Notes: a model not told the origin generated them from the letters alone. Numbered from the stretch's first letter, positions 3,621 to 15,292 are shown. The stretch is 64,000 nt of DNA from Pseudomonadota bacterium (GCA_021851875.1 JAJZQI010000007.1:27800-91799), one strand, 5' to 3'. Translations and numbers: made by a program.

Positions 3621-3662
3621 GTGACATATTGTCGCAGTAGCGAGACGGCAACAACATGTCAC
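3621..3662. promoter_or_regulatory. Imperfect palindrome upstream of the TonB receptor gene (candidate operator)
   Basis: GTGACATATTGT (3621-3632) and ACAACATGTCAC (3651-3662) are inverted repeats with 11/12 matches. They are flanked by direct CAGGGAA repeats and lie 60-100 nt upstream of the receptor start. No regulator can be assigned. Confidence 0.2.
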
Positions 3663-3692
3663 AGGGAAGATAGCGGGGCGGCGGAACGGGGC

Positions 3693-4193
3693 TCAGGCGC
3701 CGAATTCGATGCGTTCCTGCAAGGACTGAACAGCTTTCCTGGCGCAGACCTCATCCTTGTCGCCGCCCGGTGCGCCGCTGATGCCGATGGCGCCAATTCG
3801 CTGACCGTTGGCTTCAACCAGCACGCCGCCTTGCATCATGATCAGCCCGCCGATGTTGTCCAGTTCCATGCGCAGATCGGCGCGGTTTTTCACCACGCTG
3901 CCGGAATCCGCGCCGCCCATGATACTGAGATTGGCTTTGCGCTCGGCGATTTCCAGGGTAAAACGCGGCGCCAGATCGTCGCGCAGTTCGGCCCGCACGA
4001 TGGCATTGCGATCCACCACCACGGCGCTCACCTGGTAGCCGTCGGCGCGGCAGGCCAGCACGGCGGCGTTGGCCAGGTCGCGCGCCAGTTCCATGCCGAT
4101 ATTGGTGTTGCTGATGGTGTCGGCGGCATGGGCGGCCGGTGCCAAGGCCAGCAAAGCGGAGATAAGGGAAAAGGCGGTGTGTTTGCGCAGCAT
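3693..4193 (-). CDS. Secreted GlcG/HbpS-like (DUF336) haem-binding-family protein
   Basis: 166 aa. Signal peptide MLRKHTAFSLISALLALAPAAHA. DUF336 core visible in ...GQRIGAIGISGAPGGDKDEVCA... Confidence 0.75.
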   Translation of the reverse strand: MLRKHTAFSLISALLALAPAAHAADTISNTNIGMELARDLANAAVLACRADGYQVSAVVVDRNAIVRAELRDDLAPRFTLEIAERKANLSIMGGADSGSVVKNRADLRMELDNIGGLIMMQGGVLVEANGQRIGAIGISGAPGGDKDEVCARKAVQSLQERIEFGA

Positions 4194-4296
4194 GGTCCGG
4201 TATCCTTGGGATAGTTATACGGAATTAAAACGAATTAATTCTGGACTGCCGTCGACAAATTGTAAATGCGAAAACGCAGGCCGGGTTTGGCGGGCG

Positions 4297-5046
4297 CTAG
4301 CCGAAAAATCCCAGCTTTTGCGACAGCTCTTTAGCCGCTTTCTGCATCCATTCCACCCACTCATCCTTGCGCCGTTCGCGCGGGGCCGAAATGGACAGGC
4401 CGGCGACGGCTTTGCCGCTGCCATCACGCACCAGTACGCCAATGCAGCCCACGCCCAATTCGGCTTCTTCGTCGTCATAGGCGAAGCCCTGCTTCTTCGC
4501 CTGTTGCGCCGCGTTGAACAGGGCCAGCGGTTCGGTGATGGTGTTGGCGGTATAGGCCGGCAGGTGGGTGCGGCGGGCGTAGTCGAGGCAGGCCTCGGCC
4601 GTATCTTCGCCCAGCATCAGTTTGCCCACGGCGGTGACGTGCAGCGGGGCGCGGCTGCCGATGACCTGCTCCACCCGCATGAGGCGGTTGGAGGTGACGC
4701 GTTCGACGTAGATCACCTCGTCGTTTTCGCGCACGGTGAGATTGACCGTTTCGCCGGTGGCGTCGCGCAGGGCGGCCATGATAGGCAGGGCTTCCTGGCG
4801 CAGGTCGATTTCCTGTCCCGCCTGCGCCGCGTAGCGCAACAGACCGCTGCCGAGCTGATAGGCGCCGTTGGCGTCGCGTGCCACCCAGCCGTGCTGCTGC
4901 AGCGAGGCGAGAATGCGAAACGCGGTGGAACTGTGCAGCCCGGTATCGGCCGCCAGCACTTTCAGGCTGGCATGGCCGTGCTGCGCCAGGCTTTCCAGCA
5001 GGGTGACCATGCGGTCGATAACTTGGATGGAGGTTTCTGTGCTCAT
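4297..5046 (-). CDS. IclR-family transcriptional regulator
   Basis: 249 aa. N-terminal wHTH (VIDRMVTLLESLAQHGHASLKVLAADTGLHSSTAFRILASLQ) plus an IclR effector domain (...ELGVGCIGVLVRD...GLSISAP). Divergent from the operon starting at 5490. Confidence 0.9.
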   Translation of the reverse strand: MSTETSIQVIDRMVTLLESLAQHGHASLKVLAADTGLHSSTAFRILASLQQHGWVARDANGAYQLGSGLLRYAAQAGQEIDLRQEALPIMAALRDATGETVNLTVRENDEVIYVERVTSNRLMRVEQVIGSRAPLHVTAVGKLMLGEDTAEACLDYARRTHLPAYTANTITEPLALFNAAQQAKKQGFAYDDEEAELGVGCIGVLVRDGSGKAVAGLSISAPRERRKDEWVEWMQKAAKELSQKLGFFG

Positions 5047-5089: not shown

Positions 5090-5325
5090 CGTTGTTCAGC
5101 GTTTCTTGGCCGGGGGCGCCCGGCAGCGCGGTACTTTCTTTTGCTTCGCCAAAAGAAAGTACCCAAAGAAAAGGCGACCCTGAATTTGTCGACTTCCCCT
5201 CGTGGCTGAATTTCTGGCGGGTGGCGAGTAAACTCGCCCTGGCGGGGCACGAACAGTACTCGCCGCAAGCCCCCGCCAGAAATCCAGCCGCTCGGCGACA
5301 AATAAAAGGGGACCCAAAAGACAAA
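5090..5325. repeat. Composite palindromic REP/MITE-like intergenic element
   Basis: Perfect 13-bp hairpin GGTACTTTCTTTT-N8-AAAAGAAAGTACC (5130-5163). A second long imperfect inverted repeat is ATTTGTCG...GGCTGAATTTCTGGCGGG (5184-5221) versus CCCGCCAGAAATCCAGCC...CGACAAAT (5271-5302). Non-coding in every frame. Confidence 0.55.
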
Positions 5326-5382: not shown

Positions 5383-5415
5383 GTATTGTGAAATCAATTC
5401 TGTATTGCGAAATAC
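5383..5415. promoter_or_regulatory. Candidate IclR operator (two related sites)
   Basis: GTATTGTGAAATC (5383-5395) and the near-palindrome GTATTGCGAAATAC (5402-5415, 12/14 self-complementary) are spaced 19 bp apart. They lie in the iclR / ketolase divergent intergenic region. Confidence 0.3.
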
Positions 5416-5489: not shown

Positions 5490-7679
5490 ATGAACGCACC
5501 CGCATTCTGTCAGGGCATTCAGCATTACGGCGAGAAGTGGCCGGATTTCGACACCAAGGCAGCCAAGGCGCTTATCGCCGAAGGCCAGAGCGCCATCGCC
5601 GAAGTCAGCGACGAAGCCGCCTACCAGACCCTGCTGGGTGCGGACGCACTGCGTTACCTGACGCTGCAGGTGACCGGCTCCAAAGGCTCCGGCCACCCGG
5701 GCGGTTTTGCCTCCAGCGCCGAGGCGCACGCCTCCCTGATCATGCTGGGCCACACCAATATCGTGACCGAGGTGGGCCACCATGCGCCGGGCTTCTACTC
5801 TTCCATGTTCCTCGATTCCTCGCTGGAAGAAATGGGCATCAACACCATGGACGACATGATGAAGCGTTTCCGTGAGAAGCACGGTCTGCTGGGTCACCTG
5901 TCCGGCGCCATTCCCGGTCTGCTGGCTCCGGCCGGTCCGCTGGGTCAGGGCCAGCACTTCGCCATGGCCGGCGCGCTGCTGCATCCGGGCAAACTGTTCC
6001 CGGTAACCATCGGCGACGGCGGCATGGGCGAGCCGTACGTGCTGAACAGCATGATGCACTTCAATACCGCCTACCCGAGCATCACCAACTTCCTGCCGGT
6101 ACTGGTATGGAACGGTTACTCGCAGGAACACCACTCCATGGTGTCGCGCATGAGCAATGACGAGATGATCGCCTACTGGAAAGGCCACGGCTTCAAGGAA
6201 GTGGTGCTGGTAGACGCCAAGGAATTCGACGACAGCAAGCAGAGCGGTGCTTATGTCGACAGTACCCACTTCTCGCACGGCCAGCGCCTGGCGTTTGCCA
6301 AGGCCGTACTGCAGGGTGTGGACAAGGCGGCGCGTTCCGCACTGGGCGGCACGCTGACGGCATTCATCATCAAGCAGCTGAAGGGTTCCGGCGTACACAC
6401 CGTGGGCGCTAAGTCGCACAACCTGTACCCGAAGGACACGCTCGACCAGCCGCACATCATCGAAGGCCTGAAGCGCCGCGCCCTGCCGCCCGAAGCCTGG
6501 CAGATCGTTCGCGACAACTTCTCGCGCGCCGGTGGCGGCCCCGCTGTGAAGACCGCGGTAACCGAGACCGAACTGGATATTGTGGCCATGCCGAAACTGG
6601 CGATGGAAGAGTTCAAGCCGACCGACAAGGCGGTACCGGCCACCGCCATGGGTGCGCTGGTTGCGCAGATGGGCAAGGCCGATGCGCGTTTCGTGGTGAC
6701 CAATGCTGACGGTAATGAAGCTTCGGCCATGAAGAACATCAACGATGCGCTGAAAATCCGTCACCCAACCGTGGATCCGCTGTACAACCAGGAACCCAAC
6801 GGTCAGGTATACGAGCCGCTGAACGAAGACGCCTGTGCGGGTCTGGCGGCGGGTCTGGCGCTGTTCGGCTCCCGTTCGCTGTGGCTGTCGTACGAATCGT
6901 TCGCCATCAACGGCTGGCCGATCATCCAGACGGTGACCCAGGCCATGGCCGAACTGCGCCGCAAGACACCGTCCATCGTGTGCATGTTCACGGCCGGGGC
7001 GCTGGAGCAGGGCCGTAACGGCTGGACCCACCAGCGCCCGGAAATCGAGAACTTCTTTGCCGCCATGATGCGTAACGGCAACGTGTTCCCGTTGTTCCCA
7101 TGCGATGCGAACTCGATCCAGACCGTGTATGAGTACGCCACCAGCAGCGTGAACAAGGGCATGGTCATCATCGCCTCCAAGAGCCCGTTGCCGGTATACA
7201 TGAGCCTGGCTGAATCGAAGCAGGCGGTTGAGAGGGGGGCGGCGACGATTTACCAGAGCGCCGGCGGTGATAAAGGCACGGTGGTGTTCGCCGCCACCGG
7301 CGACATGGTGCTGCTGCCGGTATTTGCCGCCAAGGACAAGCTGGAAGCTGAGGGCTATTCGGTACGCATCGTTGCCGTAGTGAACCCGCGTGCGTTGTAT
7401 CGCCCGACCGACGTGGCCTGGGATACCGTATCGCAGCCGGACAATGCGTTCATGGACGACGACCATTTCAATGCGCTGTTCGACGGCGATGCGCTGATCG
7501 CGGTGAGCGGCGGTCCGAGCGCTTCGCTGGAGCCGGTTCTGTTGCGCACCCGCGCGCCGAAACGTGATACTTTCTGCTGGAAACGCGGCGAAACCACCGC
7601 TTCGGCCGACGAGATCATGGAATTCAACGGTATCACCGCCGATGCCATGACCGCACGTGCCAAAGCGCTGCTGAAGTAA
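5490..7679 (+). CDS. ThDP-dependent transketolase/phosphoketolase-superfamily enzyme (729 aa), exact activity unknown
   Basis: Track ORF 5388-7679 trimmed to ATG 5490 (AGGAG 8 nt upstream). Transketolase-like SGHPGG motif. The ThDP/Mg motif GDGGMGEP...VLVWNGYSQ resembles the phosphoketolase GDGE...LNGYKI block. Confidence 0.8.
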   Translation: MNAPAFCQGIQHYGEKWPDFDTKAAKALIAEGQSAIAEVSDEAAYQTLLGADALRYLTLQVTGSKGSGHPGGFASSAEAHASLIMLGHTNIVTEVGHHAPGFYSSMFLDSSLEEMGINTMDDMMKRFREKHGLLGHLSGAIPGLLAPAGPLGQGQHFAMAGALLHPGKLFPVTIGDGGMGEPYVLNSMMHFNTAYPSITNFLPVLVWNGYSQEHHSMVSRMSNDEMIAYWKGHGFKEVVLVDAKEFDDSKQSGAYVDSTHFSHGQRLAFAKAVLQGVDKAARSALGGTLTAFIIKQLKGSGVHTVGAKSHNLYPKDTLDQPHIIEGLKRRALPPEAWQIVRDNFSRAGGGPAVKTAVTETELDIVAMPKLAMEEFKPTDKAVPATAMGALVAQMGKADARFVVTNADGNEASAMKNINDALKIRHPTVDPLYNQEPNGQVYEPLNEDACAGLAAGLALFGSRSLWLSYESFAINGWPIIQTVTQAMAELRRKTPSIVCMFTAGALEQGRNGWTHQRPEIENFFAAMMRNGNVFPLFPCDANSIQTVYEYATSSVNKGMVIIASKSPLPVYMSLAESKQAVERGAATIYQSAGGDKGTVVFAATGDMVLLPVFAAKDKLEAEGYSVRIVAVVNPRALYRPTDVAWDTVSQPDNAFMDDDHFNALFDGDALIAVSGGPSASLEPVLLRTRAPKRDTFCWKRGETTASADEIMEFNGITADAMTARAKALLK

Positions 7680-7750
7680 ATTTCCGCTCGGGGGCTGCCT
7701 GCCCGCAGGTGGCCTCCTGATCGGGTTATAGGCAAGAAACGGAAAAGGCC

Positions 7751-9079
7751 ATGAGCCAGCAAACCAAGATTATTGTGTTGGACGACGACCCGACCGGGTC
7801 GCAGACGGTACACGGCTGCCTGCTGCTGACCCGCTGGGATGTGCCGACCCTGGTCGGTGCCCTGCAGGACGCGTCGCCGCTGTTTTTCGTGCTGACCAAT
7901 ACCCGCGGCATGTCGGCCGCGCGTGCCGAGGCGGTCACCCGCGAGGTGTGCGCCAACGTGCGTGTGGCACTGGATCTGGAGAAAGCCGCTGGCCGCTCGA
8001 TCAATCCGATTCTGGTGAGCCGTTCGGATTCCACCCTGCGCGGTCACTATCCGGTGGAAACCGATGTGATCGCCGAGGAACTCGGGCCGTTCGACGCGCA
8101 TTTTCTGGTGCCGGCATTTTTTGAGGGCGGCCGGGTAACGCGCGGCAGCATCCATTATCTGATGGTCAACGGCGAGCCGGTGCCGGTGCATGAAACCGAA
8201 TTCGCCCGCGATTCGGTGTTCGGCTACCGTCACAGCCATCTGCCCGACTACGTGGCGGAAAAAACCCGCGGCCGCATTGCCGCCGAACAGGTGGAACGCT
8301 TCACCCTGACAGACGTGCGCGGCGATATTTCCGCCCGTCTGCTGGCGCTGAAAGACAATGTGTGCGGCGTGGTGGATGCCGAGCAGCAGTCCGACCTGGA
8401 CCGTTTTGCCGCGCAGATTCAGACCGCGGCCGCCACCGGCAAGCGTTTTCTGTTCCGCAGCGCGGCCAGCTTGCTGACTTCGCTGGCGCAACTCGGTCCG
8501 CAGCCGGTGGCGCCGGAGCAGATGGCTGCCTACGTGCGCGGCGGGCGTGCCGGCGCGGTTATTGTCGGTTCGCACGTGAAGAAAACCACTGCGCAGTTGG
8601 CGGAGTTGCTTAAACAGCCGGGCGTAGTTGGGCTGGAAGTCGATGTCGAACGCATCGGCCCCGCTCGCGACGCCCTGCTGGAGGAAGTCCGTCTGGCGGC
8701 CGAGGCGGTTCATGCACGCAACGAGACGCCGGCGGTGTATACCACCCGGGTGGAGAAAACCTTTGCCGACCAGGCCACTCGCCTGGCCTTCGGCGAACAG
8801 GTGTCGGCATTTCTGATGGACGTGGTGAGCAACCTGCCGGTGAGCATCGGTTTTCTTATCAGCAAGGGCGGCATTACCTCCAACGACGTGCTGAGCGACG
8901 GTCTGGCACTGCGCACTTCGCGTGTGGTGGGGCAGATCCTTGCCGGGTGCTCGGTGGTGCGCTGTCCGGATTACCACCCGCGCTATCCCGACCTGCCGGT
9001 GGTGATCTTCCCCGGCAACGTGGGTGACGAGCACGCGCTGGCCACCGTATACAACCGACTGCGCGGGAACGCCGGCTGA
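7751..9079 (+). CDS. Four-carbon acid-sugar kinase family protein (DUF1537)
   Basis: 442 aa. N-terminus KIIVLDDDPTGSQTVHG is the hallmark of DUF1537 kinases. The stop overlaps the glcD ATG by 1 nt (TGATG). Confidence 0.85.
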   Translation: MSQQTKIIVLDDDPTGSQTVHGCLLLTRWDVPTLVGALQDASPLFFVLTNTRGMSAARAEAVTREVCANVRVALDLEKAAGRSINPILVSRSDSTLRGHYPVETDVIAEELGPFDAHFLVPAFFEGGRVTRGSIHYLMVNGEPVPVHETEFARDSVFGYRHSHLPDYVAEKTRGRIAAEQVERFTLTDVRGDISARLLALKDNVCGVVDAEQQSDLDRFAAQIQTAAATGKRFLFRSAASLLTSLAQLGPQPVAPEQMAAYVRGGRAGAVIVGSHVKKTTAQLAELLKQPGVVGLEVDVERIGPARDALLEEVRLAAEAVHARNETPAVYTTRVEKTFADQATRLAFGEQVSAFLMDVVSNLPVSIGFLISKGGITSNDVLSDGLALRTSRVVGQILAGCSVVRCPDYHPRYPDLPVVIFPGNVGDEHALATVYNRLRGNAG

Positions 9080-10572
9080 TGTCGCAACACGGCTGCGAGC
9101 ACGATCACGTTCCTGTTATCGGCAAAGCCGAGTTGGTGGCACAGTTGCTGCAGCTGTTGCCGGCTGACTGCGTGCTGTTTGAAGAGGAAGACCTGCGTCC
9201 ATACGAATGCGACGGCTTGTCCGCCTACCGGCAACTGCCCTGGGTGACTGTGCTGCCGCAGTCGGTGGGGCAGGTGCAGGCCGTCATGCGGCTGTGTCAT
9301 CAGCACCGGCTGCCAGTGGTGGCGCGCGGTGCCGGTACCGGCCTGTCCGGCGGCGCGCTGCCGCATCCCAATGGCGTGCTGCTGAGCCTCGCAAAACTGA
9401 AATCCATTCTGGCTATCGACACGCTGGCACGCACCGCACGGGTGCAGCCGGGCGTGCGCAACCTGGCTATTTCCCAGGCGGCGTCTCAATATGGTTTGTA
9501 TTACGCGCCCGATCCCTCGTCGCAAATCGCCTGCACCATCGGCGGCAATGTGGCGGAAAACTCCGGCGGCGTGCATTGCCTGAAATACGGCCTGACGGTG
9601 CACAACATCCTGCAGATCAAGCTGGTGACCATCGAGGGCGACCTGCTGGTGGTCGGCAGCGAAGCACTGGACAGCGCCGGCTACGATCTGCTGGCGCTGA
9701 TGACCGGTTCGGAAGGCATGCTGGGCGTGATTGTGGAAGTGACCGTGCGGCTTCTGCCGGTGCCGGAAAAAGCCAAGGTCATGCTGGCGGCGTTCGACGA
9801 CGTGGAAAAAGCCGGTGCCGCGGTGGGGGCGATCATCGCGGCCGGTGTCATCCCGGGCGGGCTGGAAATGATGGACAAGCTGTCCATCGGCGCGGCGGAA
9901 GATTTCGCCCATGCCGGCTACCCGCGCGACGCCGAAGCCATTTTGCTGTGCGAGCTGGATGGAACGTGCGAAGAAGTGGCCGAGCAGGTGGAGCAGGTGC
10001 AGGCCATTCTTAAAGACATCGGTGCCACCGAAGTGCGGCTGGCGCGCGACGAGCAGGAACGGGCGTTGTTGTGGAAAGGGCGCAAGTCGGCCTTCCCCGC
10101 CGTGGGTCGCCTGTCGCCCGACTACTATTGCATGGACGGGACGATACCGCGCCGTCACCTTCCTTTTGTCTTGCGCCGCATCGGCGAATTGTCGCAGCAA
10201 TACGGTCTGGCGGTGGCCAACGTGTTCCACGCCGGCGATGGCAATTTGCACCCGTTGATTCTGTACGATGCAAACAAACCGGGCGAGCTGGCGAATGCCG
10301 AAGAATTCGGCAGCAAGATTCTCGAGCTGTGCGTCGAGGTGGGCGGCAGCATCACCGGCGAGCACGGTGTGGGTATGGAAAAGATCAATCAGATGTGTGT
10401 GCAGTACGACAGTGCCGAGCTGACCCAGTTTCACGCCATCAAGCATGCCTTCGACCCGCAGGGCCTGCTCAATCCGGGCAAGGCCGTGCCGACCTTGCAC
10501 CGCTGCGCCGAATTCGGCGCCATGCATGTGCACGACGGCAAGCTGCCGTTTCCCGAGCTGGAGCGGTTCTGA
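9079..10572 (+). CDS. glcD: Glycolate oxidase FAD-linked subunit GlcD
   Basis: 497 aa. FAD-binding PCMH domain (VVARGAGTGLSGGALP) and C-terminal FAD-oxidase domain (GSITGEHGVGMEK). Confidence 0.9.
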   Translation: MSQHGCEHDHVPVIGKAELVAQLLQLLPADCVLFEEEDLRPYECDGLSAYRQLPWVTVLPQSVGQVQAVMRLCHQHRLPVVARGAGTGLSGGALPHPNGVLLSLAKLKSILAIDTLARTARVQPGVRNLAISQAASQYGLYYAPDPSSQIACTIGGNVAENSGGVHCLKYGLTVHNILQIKLVTIEGDLLVVGSEALDSAGYDLLALMTGSEGMLGVIVEVTVRLLPVPEKAKVMLAAFDDVEKAGAAVGAIIAAGVIPGGLEMMDKLSIGAAEDFAHAGYPRDAEAILLCELDGTCEEVAEQVEQVQAILKDIGATEVRLARDEQERALLWKGRKSAFPAVGRLSPDYYCMDGTIPRRHLPFVLRRIGELSQQYGLAVANVFHAGDGNLHPLILYDANKPGELANAEEFGSKILELCVEVGGSITGEHGVGMEKINQMCVQYDSAELTQFHAIKHAFDPQGLLNPGKAVPTLHRCAEFGAMHVHDGKLPFPELERF

Positions 10573-11642
10573 TGCCGGCAAACGATCTCACTGCTTCCCT
10601 GCAACAACAGGTACAGGCGGCTTATGCCGGCAAAACCCCGCTGAAAATCGTCGGCGGCAACAGCAAGGCGTTTTACGGCCGGCAAACCACAGGCGCTGAG
10701 TTAACTGTGCTGGATGTGTCCGGCCACAGCGGCATTAACAGCTACGAACCGACCGAACTGGTGTTGACGGCACGGGCCGGTACGCCGCTGGCAGAAATTG
10801 AAGCGGCGCTGGCGGAAAAAGGCCAGCTGCTGCCGTTCGAGCCGCCCCACTGGGGACCGAATGCCACACTGGGCGGTACCATCGCCTGCAATCTGTCCGG
10901 CCCGCGTCGCCCGTATGCCGGTTCGGCGCGCGATTTCGTGCTGGGCTGCCATGTGATCAACGGCAAGGGTGAGCTGCTGCATTTTGGCGGCGAAGTGATG
11001 AAAAACGTGGCCGGTTATGATGCCGCCCGCCTCATGGCGGGCGCACTGGGCACCCTGGGTGTGCTGCTGGACGTCAGCCTGAAAGTGCTGCCCGTGCCGC
11101 AGGACAAGCTCACCCTGGTGCAGCCGGCCACCTTGCCTGCTGCACTGGAACAGATGAATAAACTGGCTGGCCAACCGGTACCGCTGTCGGCTTCCGCCTG
11201 GGTGGACGGTTACCTGTATCTGCGCTTTGCCGGTGCAAAGAGCGCTGTAGCGGCCGTCAAACAGCGCGTGGCGGGCGATGTGCTGGTGGACGCGGCCACG
11301 TTCTGGCGCAGCCTGCGCGAACTGCAGCTGCCTTTCTTCGCCGAAGCCGCTTCTTTGTGGCGCATCGCCCTGCCGCAAACGGCCGATCAGCCGAAACTGC
11401 CGGGCGACTGGCTGCTGGAGTGGGGCGGGGCGCAACGCTGGCTGAAAACCGCTGCGTCGATCGAGCAGGTACGTGCCGCCGTGGCCGCACTCGGTGGTCA
11501 CGCTACCCTGCTGCATGGTGGTAGCGGCTCGGATGCTTTCCAGCCTTTGCCCGCCGGCCTCTGGCAGGCGCACCAACGGCTGAAGCAGGCCTTCGATCCG
11601 GCCGGTATTCTCAACCCCGGCCGCATGTACGAAGGCTTATAA
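10572..11642 (+). CDS. glcE: Glycolate oxidase FAD-binding subunit GlcE
   Basis: Track ORF 10071-11642 trimmed to ATG 10572, which overlaps the glcD stop (TGATG). Starts MPANDLTASLQQQVQAAYAGKTPLKIVGGNSKAFYG; 356 aa. Confidence 0.85.
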   Translation: MPANDLTASLQQQVQAAYAGKTPLKIVGGNSKAFYGRQTTGAELTVLDVSGHSGINSYEPTELVLTARAGTPLAEIEAALAEKGQLLPFEPPHWGPNATLGGTIACNLSGPRRPYAGSARDFVLGCHVINGKGELLHFGGEVMKNVAGYDAARLMAGALGTLGVLLDVSLKVLPVPQDKLTLVQPATLPAALEQMNKLAGQPVPLSASAWVDGYLYLRFAGAKSAVAAVKQRVAGDVLVDAATFWRSLRELQLPFFAEAASLWRIALPQTADQPKLPGDWLLEWGGAQRWLKTAASIEQVRAAVAALGGHATLLHGGSGSDAFQPLPAGLWQAHQRLKQAFDPAGILNPGRMYEGL

Positions 11643-11643
11643 G

Positions 11644-12852
11644 ATGCAAACGTCCCTGAGCGATGCATTCAAGAACACCGCTGCCGGTCAGGAAGCCGAT
11701 GCCATTCTGCGTTCCTGCGTGCATTGCGGTTTCTGTACCGCCACCTGTCCGACCTATCAGATCAAGGGCGACGAGCTGGACAGCCCGCGCGGACGCATTT
11801 ATCTGATCAAGCAGGTGCTGGAAGGGCAGCCGGCGACGGAAAAAACCCAGACCCATCTGGATCGCTGCCTCACCTGCCGTTCGTGCGAATCGACCTGCCC
11901 GTCGGGCGTGCAGTACGGCCACCTGGTCGACATCGGCCGTGCCGTGGTGGAACAGCAGGTTGGCCGTTCATTTAAAGAAAACCTACTACGTCGCGCCTTG
12001 CGCACCGTCATTCCTTATCGTAACCGCTTTGCGTCTTTGCTCAAGCTGGGGCGCCTCGCTGCACCCCTGTTGCCTGCCGCGTTGCGCGCCAAACTACCGC
12101 AGCCGCAGCAGGCCGGCGCCTGGCCTGTTACACGTCATGTCCGCACCATGCTGGCGCTGCAGGGTTGCGTGCAGCCGTCCGCCACACCGCTGACCAATGC
12201 CGCCGCGGCGCGCGTGCTGGACAGGCTCGGCATTACCCTGCTGGAAATCGGCGAAACGGGCTGCTGCGGTGCGCTAAGTCAGCACATGAGTGCGGCAGAG
12301 GAAGCGAAACATTTCGCCCGCCGCAATATCGACGCCTGGTGGCCGCATATCAAGGCGGGGGCGGAAGCCATTGTGGTGACGGCCAGCGGCTGCGGCGTGA
12401 CGGTAAAAGACTACGGCCACTTGTTGCACGAAGATGCTGCCTATGCGGCAAAGGCCGCGCGGGTATCGGCGCTGAGCCGCGATCTGGTGGAAATCCTGCT
12501 GCAGGAGGATCTGTCGCGCCTGCAGCCGGCCAAGGCCGGCCCCATTGCCGTGCATGCTCCTTGTACACTGCAGCACGGCCAGAAGTTGCCCAATGCGGTG
12601 GAGGCATTATTACAACGCACCGGGTTTACGCTTACCGGCGTGCCGGATGCCCATCTTTGTTGCGGTTCGGCCGGCACCTATTCGATTCTGCAGCCGGAGC
12701 TGTCGCAACAACTGCTGCATAACAAACTGGCGGCGCTTAACAGCGGCCAGCCCGAACAGATTGTCACCGCCAATGTCGGCTGCCAGATGCACCTGGCCAG
12801 CGGATCCGGCATTCCCGTACGCCACTGGATCGAATTGTTCGACCTCCGCTAA
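11644..12852 (+). CDS. glcF: Glycolate oxidase iron-sulfur subunit GlcF
   Basis: 402 aa. Two 4Fe-4S motifs (CVHCGFCTATCP and CLTCRSCESTCP) plus CCG domains. Confidence 0.9.
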   Translation: MQTSLSDAFKNTAAGQEADAILRSCVHCGFCTATCPTYQIKGDELDSPRGRIYLIKQVLEGQPATEKTQTHLDRCLTCRSCESTCPSGVQYGHLVDIGRAVVEQQVGRSFKENLLRRALRTVIPYRNRFASLLKLGRLAAPLLPAALRAKLPQPQQAGAWPVTRHVRTMLALQGCVQPSATPLTNAAAARVLDRLGITLLEIGETGCCGALSQHMSAAEEAKHFARRNIDAWWPHIKAGAEAIVVTASGCGVTVKDYGHLLHEDAAYAAKAARVSALSRDLVEILLQEDLSRLQPAKAGPIAVHAPCTLQHGQKLPNAVEALLQRTGFTLTGVPDAHLCCGSAGTYSILQPELSQQLLHNKLAALNSGQPEQIVTANVGCQMHLASGSGIPVRHWIELFDLR

Positions 12853-13097: not shown

Positions 13098-13113
13098 TGG
13101 CACGGACCATGCT
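13098..13113 (+). promoter_or_regulatory. Sigma-54-type -24/-12 promoter (candidate)
   Basis: TGGCAC-GGACC-ATGCT has GG-N10-GC spacing. It has the same architecture as the elements at 13356 and 40228(-). Predicted TSS is near 13124. Confidence 0.4.
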
Positions 13114-13123
13114 TTATACCAAT

Positions 13124-13243
13124 TTGAAATTTGCAATGTCTTGAATTTGTCAGTGCGACGTTTCTGTACATTCCAGACAAGGCAGTTTTGCATTGAACCT
13201 CCTCAGTGTGTGTTTTCGGGCGACTTCGGTCGCCCCTTTTTTT
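13124..13243 (+). ncRNA. Candidate ~120-nt small RNA between a sigma-54-type promoter and an intrinsic terminator
   Basis: Bounded by the -24/-12 element at 13098-13113 and the terminator at 13218-13243. AT-rich body with three AATTTG repeats and an ACCUCCUCA (anti-Shine-Dalgarno-like) stretch at 13197-13205. No credible ORF. Confidence 0.35.
13218..13243 (+). terminator. Rho-independent terminator
   Basis: GGGCGAC-TTCG-GTCGCCC stem-loop followed by C and T7. Confidence 0.8.
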
Positions 13244-13264
13244 GACTGATCAAGAATGAAAATA

Positions 13265-13281
13265 CGCACTTCATTGGTGCG
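13265..13281. promoter_or_regulatory. NtrC-like enhancer dyad
   Basis: cGCACTTCATTGGTGCg matches the TGCACC-N5-GGTGCA type dyad. It is centred about 90 bp upstream of the 13356 -24/-12 element. Confidence 0.4.
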
Positions 13282-13355
13282 AAAATAGGGTTTTTCTTAA
13301 CGCACTGTAATGCCGCTGTGCTACATAATTATTGATAATCATATTGTTGTGTGTT

Positions 13356-13371
13356 TGGCATAAACAATGCT
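13356..13371 (+). promoter_or_regulatory. Sigma-54-type -24/-12 promoter of the guanidine operon (candidate)
   Basis: TGGCAT-AAACA-ATGCT (GG-N10-GC). The predicted TSS near 13382 coincides with the first nucleotides of the riboswitch leader. Confidence 0.5.
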
Positions 13372-13382
13372 TTAAGCTTATT

Positions 13383-13535
13383 CAGAGAGGCGCCGATGGG
13401 TGCCTTAGGTCGGCTAGGGTTCCGGTTTCGCACAGAAACGACTGGTCCGAGAGCTGGCCGGTTCCGCTGATGCAGGCGGGGCTCCACGGAGGGACAAAAG
13501 CCCGGGAGATTGCTGAACGGCCTCTCTCGTTTCCG
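13383..13535 (+). promoter_or_regulatory. ykkC / guanidine-I riboswitch (aptamer ~13405-13509 plus hairpin platform)
   Basis: Carries the conserved blocks GCUAGGGUUCCGG (13413-), GGUCCGAGAG (13444-) and ACGGAGGGACAAAAGCCCGGGAGA (13486-13509). The P1 strands GGUCGGC/GCUGGCC pair. Downstream UCUCUCG-UUU (13523-13532) can pair with the aptamer 3' strand CGGGAGA. Gene context is the carboxylase operon. Confidence 0.9.
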
Positions 13536-13634: not shown

Positions 13635-14456
13635 ATGCGACGAAAAAGTCCCCAACGCTCTGCCCGGCCAGGCATATGGTCAATCCGCGGGCCGATGAGC
13701 CGGCGCCAGTATTGGGGTTTTGCCCTGGTCGGTTTGCTGCTGCCGCTGCTCGGCTGGTGGCTGCTGTCTCATATGGGAACCGATGACAGTGTGTTCATGC
13801 CCAGCCCGCTGGATGTGTTTCGCCGGCTGATCCAGTGGTATCAGGAAGACGATCTGCTGGCCGATATGTGGATCAGTATTTACCGTGTGACAGCGGGTTT
13901 CTTGTTGTCGGCACTGATCGCGCTGCCGCTGGGCTTGCTGATCGGCACCTTCCGTCCGGTGCAGGCCATGCTGGAGCCGCTGACCGATTTCATCCGCTAC
14001 ATGCCGGCCGTGGCTTTCATTCCGCTGGTGATGCTGTGGATAGGCATCGACGAGTCGTCCAAGATCGCCATCATCTGGATCGGCACCTTTTTTCAGATGG
14101 TGCTGATGATGGCCGAAGACGTGCGTCGTGTGCCGTTGGCGCAGATCGAGGCGGCTCAGACCATGGGTGCGACCCGTAGCGAGATCATCCAGCGGGTGAT
14201 TTTCCAGTCGGCCAAGCCGGCGCTGCTGGATACCCTGCGCGTCACCATGGGTTGGGCCTGGACCTATCTGGTGGTGGCCGAGTTGGTGGCGGCTAATTCC
14301 GGGCTGGGTTACTCCATTCTGAAAGCCCAGCGTTTCCTGCAAACCGACAAGATTTTCGTCGGCATCATCCTCATCGGCCTGATCGGGCTGGTGATGGATC
14401 AGCTGTTCCGTTTCGCCCACCGCAAAGCCTTTCCCTGGCTTTACCTGAGGAAGTGA
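13635..14456 (+). CDS. ABC transporter permease (NitT/TauT nitrate/sulfonate/taurine family)
   Basis: 273 aa with multiple TM helices. EAA-like loop ...EAAQTMGATRSEIIQRVIFQSAKPALLDTL. AGGA lies 9 nt upstream of ATG 13635; an alternative start at 13695 lacks an SD. Confidence 0.85.
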   Translation: MRRKSPQRSARPGIWSIRGPMSRRQYWGFALVGLLLPLLGWWLLSHMGTDDSVFMPSPLDVFRRLIQWYQEDDLLADMWISIYRVTAGFLLSALIALPLGLLIGTFRPVQAMLEPLTDFIRYMPAVAFIPLVMLWIGIDESSKIAIIWIGTFFQMVLMMAEDVRRVPLAQIEAAQTMGATRSEIIQRVIFQSAKPALLDTLRVTMGWAWTYLVVAELVAANSGLGYSILKAQRFLQTDKIFVGIILIGLIGLVMDQLFRFAHRKAFPWLYLRK

Positions 14457-14458
14457 TC

Positions 14459-15292
14459 ATGACCACAAAAATCGAAATCAAACAGGTCGGCAAGGTATTC
14501 GGCGAAGGCAAGCAAGCTGTCGAGGCGCTCAAGGACATCAATCTGACCATAGCCGACAACGAATTTGTCACCTTCGTCGGCGCCTCCGGCTGCGGTAAAT
14601 CCACTCTGCTGCGCATTATCGGCGGCTTGGAATACCACACGGCGGGTGAAGTGCTGGCTTCCGGCGAGCCGGTGTATGGTCCGGGTGCCGATCGTGCCAT
14701 GGTGTTCCAGCACTACAGCTTGTATCCCTGGCTGAAAGTGATGGAAAACATCAAATTCAGCCGGCAGCTGAAACATGGCAGGGAGGAACTCACCTCCAGC
14801 GAGGTGGAGAAGGCATCCGGCCGGGCTGATGCGCTGCTGGCGCTGATGGGCTTGCAGGCAGCGGCCAATGCCTATCCCAATCAGCTGTCGGGCGGCATGC
14901 AGCAGCGTGTGGCGATTGCCCGTGCGCTGATGGGGCGGCCGGAGATTCTGCTGATGGACGAGCCGTTCGGCGCATTGGATGCGCAAACCCGTGAAGTGAT
15001 GCACGACCTGATTCTGCACGTGCACAAGCTGGAAAAAGCCACCATCGTGTTTGTAACCCACGATGTGGAAGAAGCCATTTACCTCGGTCAGCGCGTGGTG
15101 TTGATGGCGCCGCGCCCCGGGCGTATCGACACCATTTACGATGTACCGTTGCCGGCCCAGCGCGATCAGGACATGAAGCATTCGCCGGAATTCCTGGCGC
15201 TGAAAAAGGAAATCCTGGCACGCATTCGCGATACATCCGGCATGCGCACCGACCAGAGCATGCTGGAACAACTGAATATGGAACAGGCCTGA
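14459..15292 (+). CDS. ABC transporter ATP-binding protein
   Basis: Walker A GASGCGKST, signature LSGGMQQR, Walker B ILLMDEP. Start moved from GTG 14453 to ATG 14459 (GAGGAAG upstream). Confidence 0.9.
   Translation: MTTKIEIKQVGKVFGEGKQAVEALKDINLTIADNEFVTFVGASGCGKSTLLRIIGGLEYHTAGEVLASGEPVYGPGADRAMVFQHYSLYPWLKVMENIKFSRQLKHGREELTSSEVEKASGRADALLALMGLQAAANAYPNQLSGGMQQRVAIARALMGRPEILLMDEPFGALDAQTREVMHDLILHVHKLEKATIVFVTHDVEEAIYLGQRVVLMAPRPGRIDTIYDVPLPAQRDQDMKHSPEFLALKKEILARIRDTSGMRTDQSMLEQLNMEQA

Follow-up and report, generated by a model that had tools for sequence, protein, structure and literature searches.

Background

The closest described systems are the glycerate pathway (Gcl, Hyi, GlxR/TSR, GlxK), known from Escherichia coli and from phosphoglycolate salvage in Cupriavidus necator (PMC7486775), the phosphoketolases, in which Glu479 activates ThDP and His64, Tyr501 and Asn549 make up the phosphate site (PMC6435721), and the DUF1537 kinases, established on oxo-tetronates (PMC12540250). 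The locus analyzed here lies in a 64-kb window (the whole stretch of DNA analyzed) from a Pseudomonadota bacterium, and pairs a ThDP enzyme of 729 aa, hereafter KET, with a DUF1537 kinase, 5' of the genes for glycolate oxidase. The pair is almost confined to RuBisCO bacteria devoid of Gcl, and is probably the mark of an as yet undescribed means of dealing with the glycolate by-product of RuBisCO.

Organization of the locus

The features of the locus are as follows.

3693..4193, minus strand: glcG-like gene (PF03928, 81 bits), 3' of iclR and on the same strand
4297..5046, minus strand: gene of an IclR-family regulator (IclR_C, 143 bits, plus HTH_IclR), divergent from the operon
5384..5413, plus strand: candidate regulator site, TATTGYGAAAT present twice at a spacing of 19 bp, 77-106 nt 5' of the ketolase ATG
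5490..7679, plus strand: KET, ThDP enzyme of 729 aa, from a distinct family resembling the phosphoketolases
7684..7722, plus strand: GC-rich hairpin lacking a T tract in the ketolase/kinase spacer (fold -35 kcal/mol)
7751..9079, plus strand: DUF1537 (four-carbon acid-sugar kinase family) protein, 442 aa, divergent clade
9079..10572, plus strand: glcD, start overlapping the kinase stop (TGATG)
10572..11642, plus strand: glcE, start overlapping the glcD stop (TGATG)
11644..12852, plus strand: glcF (Fe-S/CCG subunit), 1 nt after glcE
13218..13243, plus strand: intrinsic-terminator-like site, the first strong one 3' of glcF (7-pair stem, 6 G-C, then T7)

The plus strand carries, in tandem, the ketolase, kinase, glcD, glcE and glcF genes, and the minus strand iclR and the glcG-like gene. 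Direct reading of the sequence bears out the five-gene array and the overlaps described in the initial annotation, the kinase TGA (9077-9079) sharing a base with the glcD ATG (9079-9081), and the glcD TGA (10570-10572) with the glcE ATG (10572-10574). The translational coupling proposed for the whole array holds at these two junctions and fails at the first, where the 71-nt gap before the kinase means that the ketolase itself is not coupled. The hairpin found in this spacer is not significant (z-score -1.3), no terminator-like site was called within the 71 nt, and the transcription unit likely ends at 13218..13243. No RNA run containing the stretch was found. A plus-strand ORF at 3621-4214, opposite the glcG-like gene and with no family match, was discarded as a shadow ORF.

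The regulator is best matched among NCBIfam models by BhcR, at 171 bits, below the cut-off of 350, and also matches the IclR (131 bits) and AllR (102 bits) models. Its orthologues, 52-81% identical, hold the same position in about 70 loci. The two TATTGYGAAAT copies are the sole matches in the window, and upstream of the orthologous loci, the core TTGTGAAA recurs in 54 of the 76 regions; the pair is a candidate binding site for the regulator, and the two leading genes and glcDEF are probably under its divergent control. The GlcG-like gene that had been noticed nearby is real, and is 35% identical to the GlcG-like gene adjoining iclR in locus L017. The glcDEF genes, in the order D-E-F, are the sole set in the genome; GlcE (499 bits, cut-off 284) and GlcF (650 bits, cut-off 333) pass their models, and GlcD falls just under its equivalog threshold (869 bits vs. 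897).

KET is a family of its own

KET gives weak Pfam matches to XFP_N, XFP, XFP_C and Transket_pyr, those to the three XFP models, at 25-50 bits, passing what are low domain thresholds. Among NCBIfam phosphoketolase models the highest score is 119 bits (cut-off 962), the others giving 92-112 bits against cut-offs of 777-1518, and transketolase models give 47-53 bits against 488-682. The early remark that the protein fits neither family well is correct. The phosphoketolases are the nearest known family, at 24% identity, the same figure being obtained with the phosphoketolase of this genome. In profile-profile comparisons phosphoketolase aligns over 677 columns (99.8% probability), transketolase over the C-terminal 243 columns alone (96.7% probability, 25% identity), and the best PDB matches are phosphoketolases (TM 0.70-0.72), transketolases reaching TM 0.55-0.64. 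KET proteins are 66-95% identical to each other, a very high conservation, and in a quick ML tree they form a separate, tight cluster outside the phosphoketolase and transketolase clades, each of which has 100% support, on stems of more than 8 changes per site (the row PK_G056 of this tree is a mis-extracted antisense ORF and is to be disregarded). Judged by its sequence, KET is neither a phosphoketolase nor a transketolase; nor is it the phosphoketolase of the cell, as a canonical phosphoketolase (at least 1296 bits) is already found, along with a canonical transketolase, in each of the six carrier genomes examined. KET orthologues are publicly annotated as phosphoketolases.

The two motifs that had singled out KET as a ThDP enzyme of mixed character, GHPGG (residues 68-72) and GDG (175-177) followed by WNGYSQ (207-212), are confirmed, and do not vary within the family. 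H69, H97, H136, H310, E446, Y468, N510 and H514 are invariant in 22 members, and the family keeps invariant counterparts of phosphoketolase H64, H97, H142, G155, H320, E479, Y501, Q546, N549, H553 and K605. Differences are found at the positions aligned to H548 (an invariant Arg in KET), Q321 (Asn), E437 and S440. In transketolase the residue at the Y501 position is not a Tyr, and Asp (Asp477 in yeast, at the acceptor C2-OH position) stands where KET has Asn510, an Asn common to KET and phosphoketolase. The active site of KET thus looks functional. With its dehydration residues and phosphate site (Y501, N549) retained, it suggests an acyl phosphate as the product, and not simple ketol transfer or carboligation.

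The partner kinase

The kinase has the two-domain architecture of the DUF1537 family (SBD_N, PF07005, 194 bits; NBD_C, PF17042, 130 bits), with invariant N-terminal blocks DDDPTG and SRSDSTLRG. All solved DUF1537 structures are the first matches of its AlphaFold model (pLDDT 87), with probability 1.0 and TM up to 0.70. Orthology to the characterized specificity groups DtnK, OtnK, DenK and OiaK was not found by model score, identity or phmmer: the DtnK equivalog model gives 65 bits (cut-off 450), the kinase is 15-21% identical to solved members, phmmer recovered none of them, and the family profile scores them at 30 bits at most.

Distribution of the pair

The iclR-ketolase-kinase order is kept in about 70 proteobacterial loci, an arrangement far beyond chance, with glcDEF directly 3' in about 40. 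In the order sample the pair was found in 32 of 400 genomes. RuBisCO is present in 31 of these 32 carriers vs. 191 of the 400 genomes overall (Fisher p = 5e-10, uncorrected for kinship), and only one of 209 genomes with no RuBisCO match has the pair. Gcl is found in none of the 32 carriers, compared with 29 of 160 other RuBisCO-positive genomes (p = 0.004), and no family has both KET and Gcl (family-level p = 0.02). Both associations rest on related genomes, and their significance at the family level is modest. The carriers include the obligate chemolithoautotrophs Mariprofundus, Gallionella, Nitrosospira, Nitrotoga and Acidithiobacillus.

Of 151 cyanobacterial genomes, 48 have KET (62-70% identity), and these 48, and no others, have the kinase orthologue (56-69%). 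The two genes are nonetheless unlinked, megabases apart, and are also unlinked to glycolate genes. This co-occurrence and the order conserved in proteobacteria sustain the functional tie between the two enzymes that had been suspected from the single locus. None of the 151 cyanobacterial genomes has a Gcl match. The cyanobacterial protein sll1981 was formerly taken as a Gcl. It is now listed as a 2-oxoglutarate decarboxylase (PMC3699288).

The neighbours of KET in other genomes include malate synthase G (in several clusters), GlcG-like genes, LutABC, a 2-hydroxyacid dehydrogenase, TRAP or ABC transporters and glcDEF. Tartronate-semialdehyde reductase (TSR), above the equivalog cut-off, adjoins KET in genome G224, in an island of genome G056 and in locus L023. 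The genome analyzed here has two RuBisCO copies, one glcDEF, a TSR-like gene and a classical glycerate kinase (GlxK). Gcl is missing (best TIGR01504 match 345 bits, cut-off 711), malate synthase was not found, and a glyoxylate sink is therefore lacking. Neither enzyme was found in Mariprofundus and Dolichospermum.

A putative branch of glyoxylate metabolism

The initial annotation had proposed that C4/C5 acid sugars from outside the cell are catabolized to glycolate, by a route matching no described pathway. We agree that the KET-kinase set matches none. The catabolic route itself is not supported, the pair being nearly confined to RuBisCO genomes, obligate chemolithoautotrophs included, and is further disfavoured by the exclusion of Gcl and the glyoxylate-handling genes found nearby. 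Moreover, phosphoketolase-type cleavage of a 3-oxo C4 acid would give glyoxylate rather than glycolate, and would leave no need for glcDEF after it. Since RuBisCO confinement, Gcl exclusion and glyoxylate-gene neighbours argue for internally made glycolate and glyoxylate, the module is best read as an uncharacterized branch of glycolate/glyoxylate metabolism.

What the data show directly is the order of the genes, the placement of the families, the residues conserved, and the co-occurrence and distribution of the pair; substrate, direction and products are inferred as follows. KET and the kinase would be an obligate two-enzyme module which, in RuBisCO bacteria devoid of Gcl, deals with the glyoxylate formed from glycolate (2-phosphoglycolate salvage), a statement to which we give a probability of roughly 0.6 at the level of the module, specific chemistry excluded. 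The module would be transcribed in this genome with the only glcDEF of the cell. 2-Phosphoglycolate would be dephosphorylated to glycolate, and this oxidized to glyoxylate by GlcDEF; KET would engage glyoxylate in a ThDP-dependent C-C reaction yielding a short hydroxy-oxo acid, the kinase would phosphorylate the terminal CH2OH of the latter, and carbon would return to central metabolism.

Three chemistries may be envisaged, none of them probable when taken singly. KET may be a carboligase-type analogue of Gcl, turning two glyoxylate into CO2 and tartronate semialdehyde/hydroxypyruvate, with the kinase trapping hydroxypyruvate as 3-phosphohydroxypyruvate, which ordinary phosphoglycerate dehydrogenase would convert to 3-phosphoglycerate, a parallel glycerate branch operating where TSR is present; this is rather unlikely. 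It is less likely that KET takes a C2 unit from a ketose phosphate and adds it to glyoxylate to form 3-oxo-tetronate, which an OtnK-like kinase would convert to 3-oxo-tetronate 4-phosphate, decarboxylating to DHAP. Less likely again is a phosphoketolase-type KET making acetyl phosphate, to be used together with glyoxylate.

Some data count against glyoxylate salvage. glcDEF is not adjacent in about 40% of the loci and in cyanobacteria, TSR-like genes are found in just 7 of the 48 cyanobacterial carriers, the glycerate kinase already present in this genome weakens the role given to the kinase, and the glycine/serine route could be the glyoxylate sink, given the glycine cleavage system found here. 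The stronger proposal, that KET is the missing glyoxylate-converting enzyme of RuBisCO organisms devoid of Gcl, forming with the kinase an undescribed natural branch of phosphoglycolate salvage, is put forward tentatively, and with more doubt than belief. The group includes a third of the sampled cyanobacteria, and, if the proposal is true, the active site of this salvage branch would derive from phosphoketolase.

Alternative explanations

The kinase may act first, phosphorylating a 3-oxo-tetronate at C4, and KET may then split the product into glyoxylate and acetyl phosphate, in a phosphoketolase-like reaction with phosphate as the leaving group. The module would be a source of glyoxylate, not a sink, a notion close to that of the initial annotation; the C4 acid would come from D-erythronate or L-threonate, erythronate arising for instance from 4-phosphoerythronate, which forms on the side when erythrose-4-P is oxidized, and where malate synthase is present the two products would be joined to malate. 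The complete catalytic and phosphate-site set retained by KET fits this scheme, as do the known substrates of DUF1537 kinases and the changes at E437, S440 and H548 (invariant Arg), which suit another substrate, perhaps one that bears a carboxylate. In loci L018 and L020 the kinase is followed by an aldolase-family gene (PF01116) resembling 2-OtnC, a TSR/LtnD-like dehydrogenase and transporters are found nearby, and malate synthase G resides in several clusters. Yet the pair is all but missing from genomes with no RuBisCO match and is found in obligate autotrophs, which would be odd for acid-sugar catabolism; in this genome, Mariprofundus and Dolichospermum, which have neither malate synthase nor Gcl, extra glyoxylate would meet no obvious sink; no dehydrogenase or isomerase making 3-oxo-tetronate is conserved alongside the pair, and where in the cell the C4 acid would come from is a matter of speculation. 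We regard this order of events as quite unlikely.

Improbable is also the repair or salvage of some by-product other than glyoxylate, peculiar to the Calvin cycle or to RuBisCO, with the linkage to glcDEF reflecting no more than shared regulation under oxygenation stress. The near-exclusive association with RuBisCO, the very high sequence conservation and the lack of linkage to glycolate genes in cyanobacteria would be accommodated, but the genes next to the pair are those of glyoxylate metabolism in particular (TSR, malate synthase G, glcG), the exclusion of Gcl is not predicted, and no candidate substrate is backed by any of the data.

KET as a second phosphoketolase isozyme (Pkt2/Xfp2), making acetyl phosphate from xylulose-5-P or fructose-6-P, the acetyl-CoA perhaps feeding a glyoxylate-consuming malate synthase, and only loosely related to the kinase, agrees with the public annotation, the best fold and profile matches, the catalytic residues and the treatment of sll0529 and alr1850 as Pkt2 in the literature (PMC7744508, PMC11257934), but is very improbable in view of the model scores, the identity of 24% and the different residues at the E437, S440 and H548 positions, of the canonical enzyme in 6/6 carriers, of the strict co-occurrence with a dedicated kinase, left unexplained, and of the missing malate synthase in this genome.

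Comparison with known systems

The cyanobacterial KET orthologues, including those of Synechocystis sp. PCC 7339 and LKSZ1, are proteins of about 730 aa annotated as phosphoketolase or transketolase, and sll0529 of Synechocystis PCC 6803 and alr1850 of Anabaena PCC 7120 likely belong to this orthologue class. Recombinant Alr1850 reportedly showed no phosphoketolase activity in the hands of Moriyama et al. in 2015. The phosphoketolase function of Pkt2 was assigned from sequence and modelling alone (PMC7744508), and in Synechocystis a double mutant affecting the putative orthologue had no phenotype, under photomixotrophic conditions only (PMC9034593). In the literature on Pkt2/Xfp2 no mention of the co-occurring kinase was found.

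KET shares the three-domain ThDP fold with Xfp (Bifidobacterium breve 3AHC, B. longum 3AI7, Synechococcus elongatus 8IO8) at 23-24% identity. Unlike Xfp, with which it coexists in 6/6 genomes, it is 60-100 residues shorter, has the transketolase-type N-terminal motifs GHPGG and GPLGQGQ, and is always paired with a DUF1537 kinase. With transketolase (TktA/CbbT) it has in common superfamily, fold and PP-domain motifs (GHPG, GPLGQG, GDG...E).

The kinase resembles the DUF1537 kinases of tetronate pathways (OtnK, DtnK, DenK, OiaK) in SBD_N + NBD_C architecture and fold, and a few KET loci recall the LtnD/2-OtnK/2-OtnC route in having the 2-OtnC-like PF01116 gene and an NAD_binding_2 dehydrogenase adjacent. 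In contrast to the characterized systems, its hosts are autotrophs, and its partner is a ThDP enzyme, not PdxA2, OtnC or a RuBisCO-like protein. The set of tetronate pathways compared also includes Arabidopsis LTD.

The operon resembles E. coli glcDEFGB in GlcDEF and the glcG-like gene, malate synthase G being linked in some relatives, and differs in its two extra leading genes, in the lack of malate synthase from the genome and in a regulator of the IclR type (BhcR-like), not the GntR-type GlcC. Like the glycerate pathway, the module lies beside glcDEF, with a true TSR adjacent in several genomes and a TSR-like gene and GlxK encoded here; Gcl is absent, however, and the kinase is a DUF1537 protein rather than GlxK or TtuD. 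KET and Gcl, whose distributions are mutually exclusive, belong to different families, the transketolase/phosphoketolase superfamily and the acetolactate-synthase-like family, respectively, the role of KET as a carboligase being putative.

Organization of the locus

A 729-aa ThDP enzyme (KET) and a 442-aa DUF1537 kinase, together referred to as the module, are followed by glcDEF and preceded by a divergent regulator gene.

Features of the KET-kinase-glcDEF locus (window coordinates)
3693-4193, minus strand, GlcG-like gene, 166 aa (PF03928)
4297-5046, minus strand, IclR-family regulator; best model BhcR, score below the model cut-off
5490-7679, plus strand, ThDP enzyme KET, 729 aa (gene call and family models)
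7751-9079, plus strand, DUF1537 kinase; both DUF1537 domains match strongly
9079-10572, plus strand, glcD (family models)
10572-11642, plus strand, glcE (family models)
11644-12852, plus strand, glcF (family models)
13218-13243, plus strand, strong terminator-like site, the first on this strand 3' of glcF

The single-base TGATG overlaps described in the initial annotation at the kinase/glcD and glcD/glcE junctions are both read in the sequence, and glcE and glcF are 1 nt apart. KET and kinase genes are separated by a 71-nt spacer. A GC-rich hairpin in this spacer lacks a T tract and does not differ significantly from shuffles. Judging from this layout, a single transcription unit spanning the five genes from KET to glcF is plausible. 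TATTGYGAAAT has just two copies in the window, both located 77-106 nt 5' of the KET start; its core recurs upstream of the KET orthologue in 54/76 loci. A palindromic ATTGY...RCAAT operator, looked for upstream of the orthologous loci, was found in just 3 of the 76.

The iclR/KET intergenic region contains, at 5090-5325, a block of nested inverted repeats, including a perfect hairpin at about 5130-5163 (stem GGTACTTTCTTTTG), which is reminiscent of a REP- or MITE-type insertion; the block sets the iclR start ~340 bp from the operator-like repeats. A plus-strand 197-aa ORF (3621-4214) matches no family and was discarded, the overlapping minus-strand 166-aa GlcG-like ORF being the real gene. Beyond the glcF terminator, in 13098-13535 and downstream, an ABC permease and an ATPase are encoded (13635-15292), with no apparent relation to the module.

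KET and the DUF1537 kinase are divergent proteins

By sequence comparison, KET is a family of its own. Among phosphoketolase models its highest score is 119 bits (cut-off 962), transketolase models give about 50 bits, and its closest solved relatives are phosphoketolases (98-117 bits). Profile comparisons match KET to phosphoketolases over 677 columns (99.8% probability, 24% identity), and to transketolases over the C-terminal 243 columns only (96.7% probability). Phosphoketolases (TM 0.70-0.72), followed by transketolases (TM 0.55-0.64), are the top matches of the AlphaFold model (pLDDT 79). In a quick ML tree, read leaving out one mis-extracted row (an antisense ORF), KET proteins form a tight cluster, set apart by saturated stems from well-supported phosphoketolase and transketolase clades; as deep branch lengths are saturated, the tree is used for clade separation alone. 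Cyanobacterial KET is nested within proteobacterial diversity on short branches, as sister to two gammaproteobacterial MAGs (loci L070 and L074), which points to either transfer of the gene across phyla or an unusually slow pace of change. Atlas searches yielded own-family clusters and nothing else.

Active-site residues are given in phosphoketolase numbering, carried over via the canonical phosphoketolase of this genome, and their roles are after PMC6435721. Counterparts of the phosphate site (H64, Y501, N549), of the dehydration proton donor H97, and of H142, G155, H320, E479, Q546, H553 and K605 are invariant in 22 KET family members. H548 is changed to an invariant Arg in the family, Q321 to Asn in KET, and no counterpart of E437 and S440 is retained in the KET alignment. 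Since this phosphoketolase residue set is found beside N-terminal motifs of transketolase type (GHPGG, GPLGQGQ), the early remark that KET mixes motifs of the two families was right.

KET is not the phosphoketolase of this cell. Elsewhere the genome encodes both canonical enzymes, a phosphoketolase (1476 bits) and a transketolase, and the same holds for Mariprofundus, a Dolichospermum, Synechocystis sp. PCC 7339 and two complete genomes from this order (6/6 carriers tested).

The kinase, the sole DUF1537 protein of this genome, belongs to a divergent DUF1537 clade. All solved DUF1537 structures rank first among the matches of its predicted fold (pLDDT 87) at 15-21% identity; a phmmer search of the PDB retrieved no match, DUF1537 structures included, and the score on the DtnK equivalog model is 65 bits vs 450. 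In Candidatus Nitrotoga sp. M5 a second DUF1537 paralogue lies in tandem right after the conserved kinase (L060:13999-15357).

Distribution of the module

KET homologues, 66-95% identical, are found in Sulfuriferula, Mariprofundus and other Zetaproteobacteria, Gallionella, Nitrotoga, Nitrosospira, Thiobacillus, Acidithiobacillus, Chromatiaceae, Sedimenticola, Thiotrichales and heterocystous cyanobacteria. The hosts include oxidisers of iron, sulfur, ammonia and nitrite as well as purple sulfur bacteria and cyanobacteria. The order iclR-KET-kinase is constant in about 70 proteobacterial loci, glcDEF lying directly 3' in about 40.

KET is present in 32 of 400 genomes sampled from the order. RuBisCO is found in 31/32 carriers vs 191/400 genomes overall (Fisher p = 5e-10, uncorrected for kinship). 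Gcl (glyoxylate carboligase) is found in 0/32 carriers vs 29/160 other RuBisCO-positive genomes (Fisher p = 0.004, uncorrected for kinship); KET and Gcl coexist in none of the genomes sampled, and the family-level chance of zero overlap is 0.02, again kinship-uncorrected. The tallies include three unpublished genomes lacking KET, G026 and G292 (both RuBisCO- and Gcl-positive) and G377 (RuBisCO-positive). The sole exception to the RuBisCO association in the sample is G277 (99% complete, 3.6 Mb), a carrier without any RuBisCO hit at E ≤ 1e-30; three congeneric genomes have RuBisCO.

Among 151 cyanobacterial genomes, KET resides in 48, and a kinase orthologue (56-69% identity) in exactly the same 48; five further genomes have distant DUF1537 genes only. 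As KET and kinase are megabases apart in cyanobacteria, the identity of the two sets is evidence of joint function independent of linkage. The kinase orthologue is right 5' of minC-minD-minE, on the same strand, in three heterocystous species (L097, L098, L099), and this neighbourhood gave no metabolic clue. No Gcl match at E at most 1e-120 was found in the 151 genomes. TSR (tartronate-semialdehyde reductase)/LtnD-like genes are present in only 10 of them, and TSR is no obligatory partner of the module, a TSR-like gene being found in only 7/48 carriers. Three TSR/LtnD-like-positive cyanobacteria without KET have a distant DUF1537 gene, probably the mark of a true tetronate pathway.

A putative glyoxylate branch

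2-Phosphoglycolate salvage is obligatory in every organism fixing CO2 by RuBisCO in air. It is among the main targets of work to improve carbon fixation, and is little studied in chemolithoautotrophs, many of which, as this genome, convert glycolate to glyoxylate but have neither Gcl nor malate synthase. The genome (2.68 Mb, 98.75% complete) has two RuBisCO genes, one glcDEF, a lone GlcD paralogue, a TSR-like gene (315 bits vs 341) and, in unrelated surroundings, a classical glycerate kinase; a search for Gcl, malate synthase and a MOFRL-type kinase found none. Glyoxylate made by GlcDEF has therefore no textbook sink, bar a possible glycine/serine route, as glycine cleavage P-protein is encoded.

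Neighbours in other genomes point to glyoxylate. TSR genes above the equivalog cut-off are found 1.1 kb 5' of KET in G224, within an island in G056, and after glcF in L023; malate synthase G is found in L020, L023 and G056. GlcG-like genes adjoin iclR in L017, L034 and the window, and TRAP or Liv-type transporters, LutABC and a D-2-hydroxyacid dehydrogenase recur near the module. A 282-aa PF01116 aldolase-family gene is 3' of the kinase in L018 and L020. A PF03547 (Mem_trans) transporter, possibly an organic-acid carrier of the same metabolism, adjoins the glycerate kinase of this genome and is directly 5' of TSR in G056 and G224.

PF03547 (Mem_trans) genes
L087:10539-11486
L116:1547-2764
L117:7679-8638

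We favour, with a probability of about 0.6, the view that KET and kinase make up a dedicated glycolate/glyoxylate branch in RuBisCO organisms lacking Gcl. Three chemistries may underlie it. KET may carry out a Gcl-like carboligation, the kinase then phosphorylating hydroxypyruvate, which accords with the exclusion of Gcl, with TSR as a neighbour and with the gap that the absence of Gcl leaves in this genome, but does not account for the retained phosphate site. Were KET to pass a C2 unit on to glyoxylate, 3-oxo-tetronate would arise, which suits the family of the kinase and the adjacent PF01116 gene, yet conflicts with a phosphoketolase-type site. The retained residues agree with the formation of acetyl phosphate as by phosphoketolases, for example by cleavage of 3-oxo-tetronate 4-phosphate, phosphate leaving, or by dehydration of a glyoxylate-glyoxylate adduct; the former would make the module a source of glyoxylate, which is awkward in genomes without malate synthase, and the latter leaves no role for the kinase. 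That the kinase is a plain glycerate kinase is unlikely, given the classical enzyme in the genome and the strict co-occurrence with KET.

A glyoxylate route of this kind would fill a real gap in autotroph metabolism, and add a novel ThDP reaction as well as a compact engineering module. It would also amend the label of sll0529 as second phosphoketolase in metabolic models.

Relation to described systems

Literature searches (DUF1537 with phosphoketolase, acid-sugar kinase with glycolate, phosphoketolase with glcDEF) found no paper on the KET-kinase module. Cyanobacterial KET orthologues are publicly annotated as phosphoketolase or transketolase, and very likely correspond to 'Pkt2/Xfp2' (sll0529, alr1850). 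Synechocystis, a genetic model, most likely has both module orthologues (sll0529 and a DUF1537 partner), which makes the module directly testable. The literature (PMC7744508, PMC11257934, PMC9034593) treats sll0529 and alr1850 as a second, biochemically unproven phosphoketolase. Another gene, sll1981, was formerly used as 'gcl'. It is given as 2-oxoglutarate decarboxylase in PMC3699288. The kinase-PF01116 pair of L018 and L020 recalls the three-step L-threonate route (2-OtnK/2-OtnC) and the plant LTD fusion (PMC12540250).
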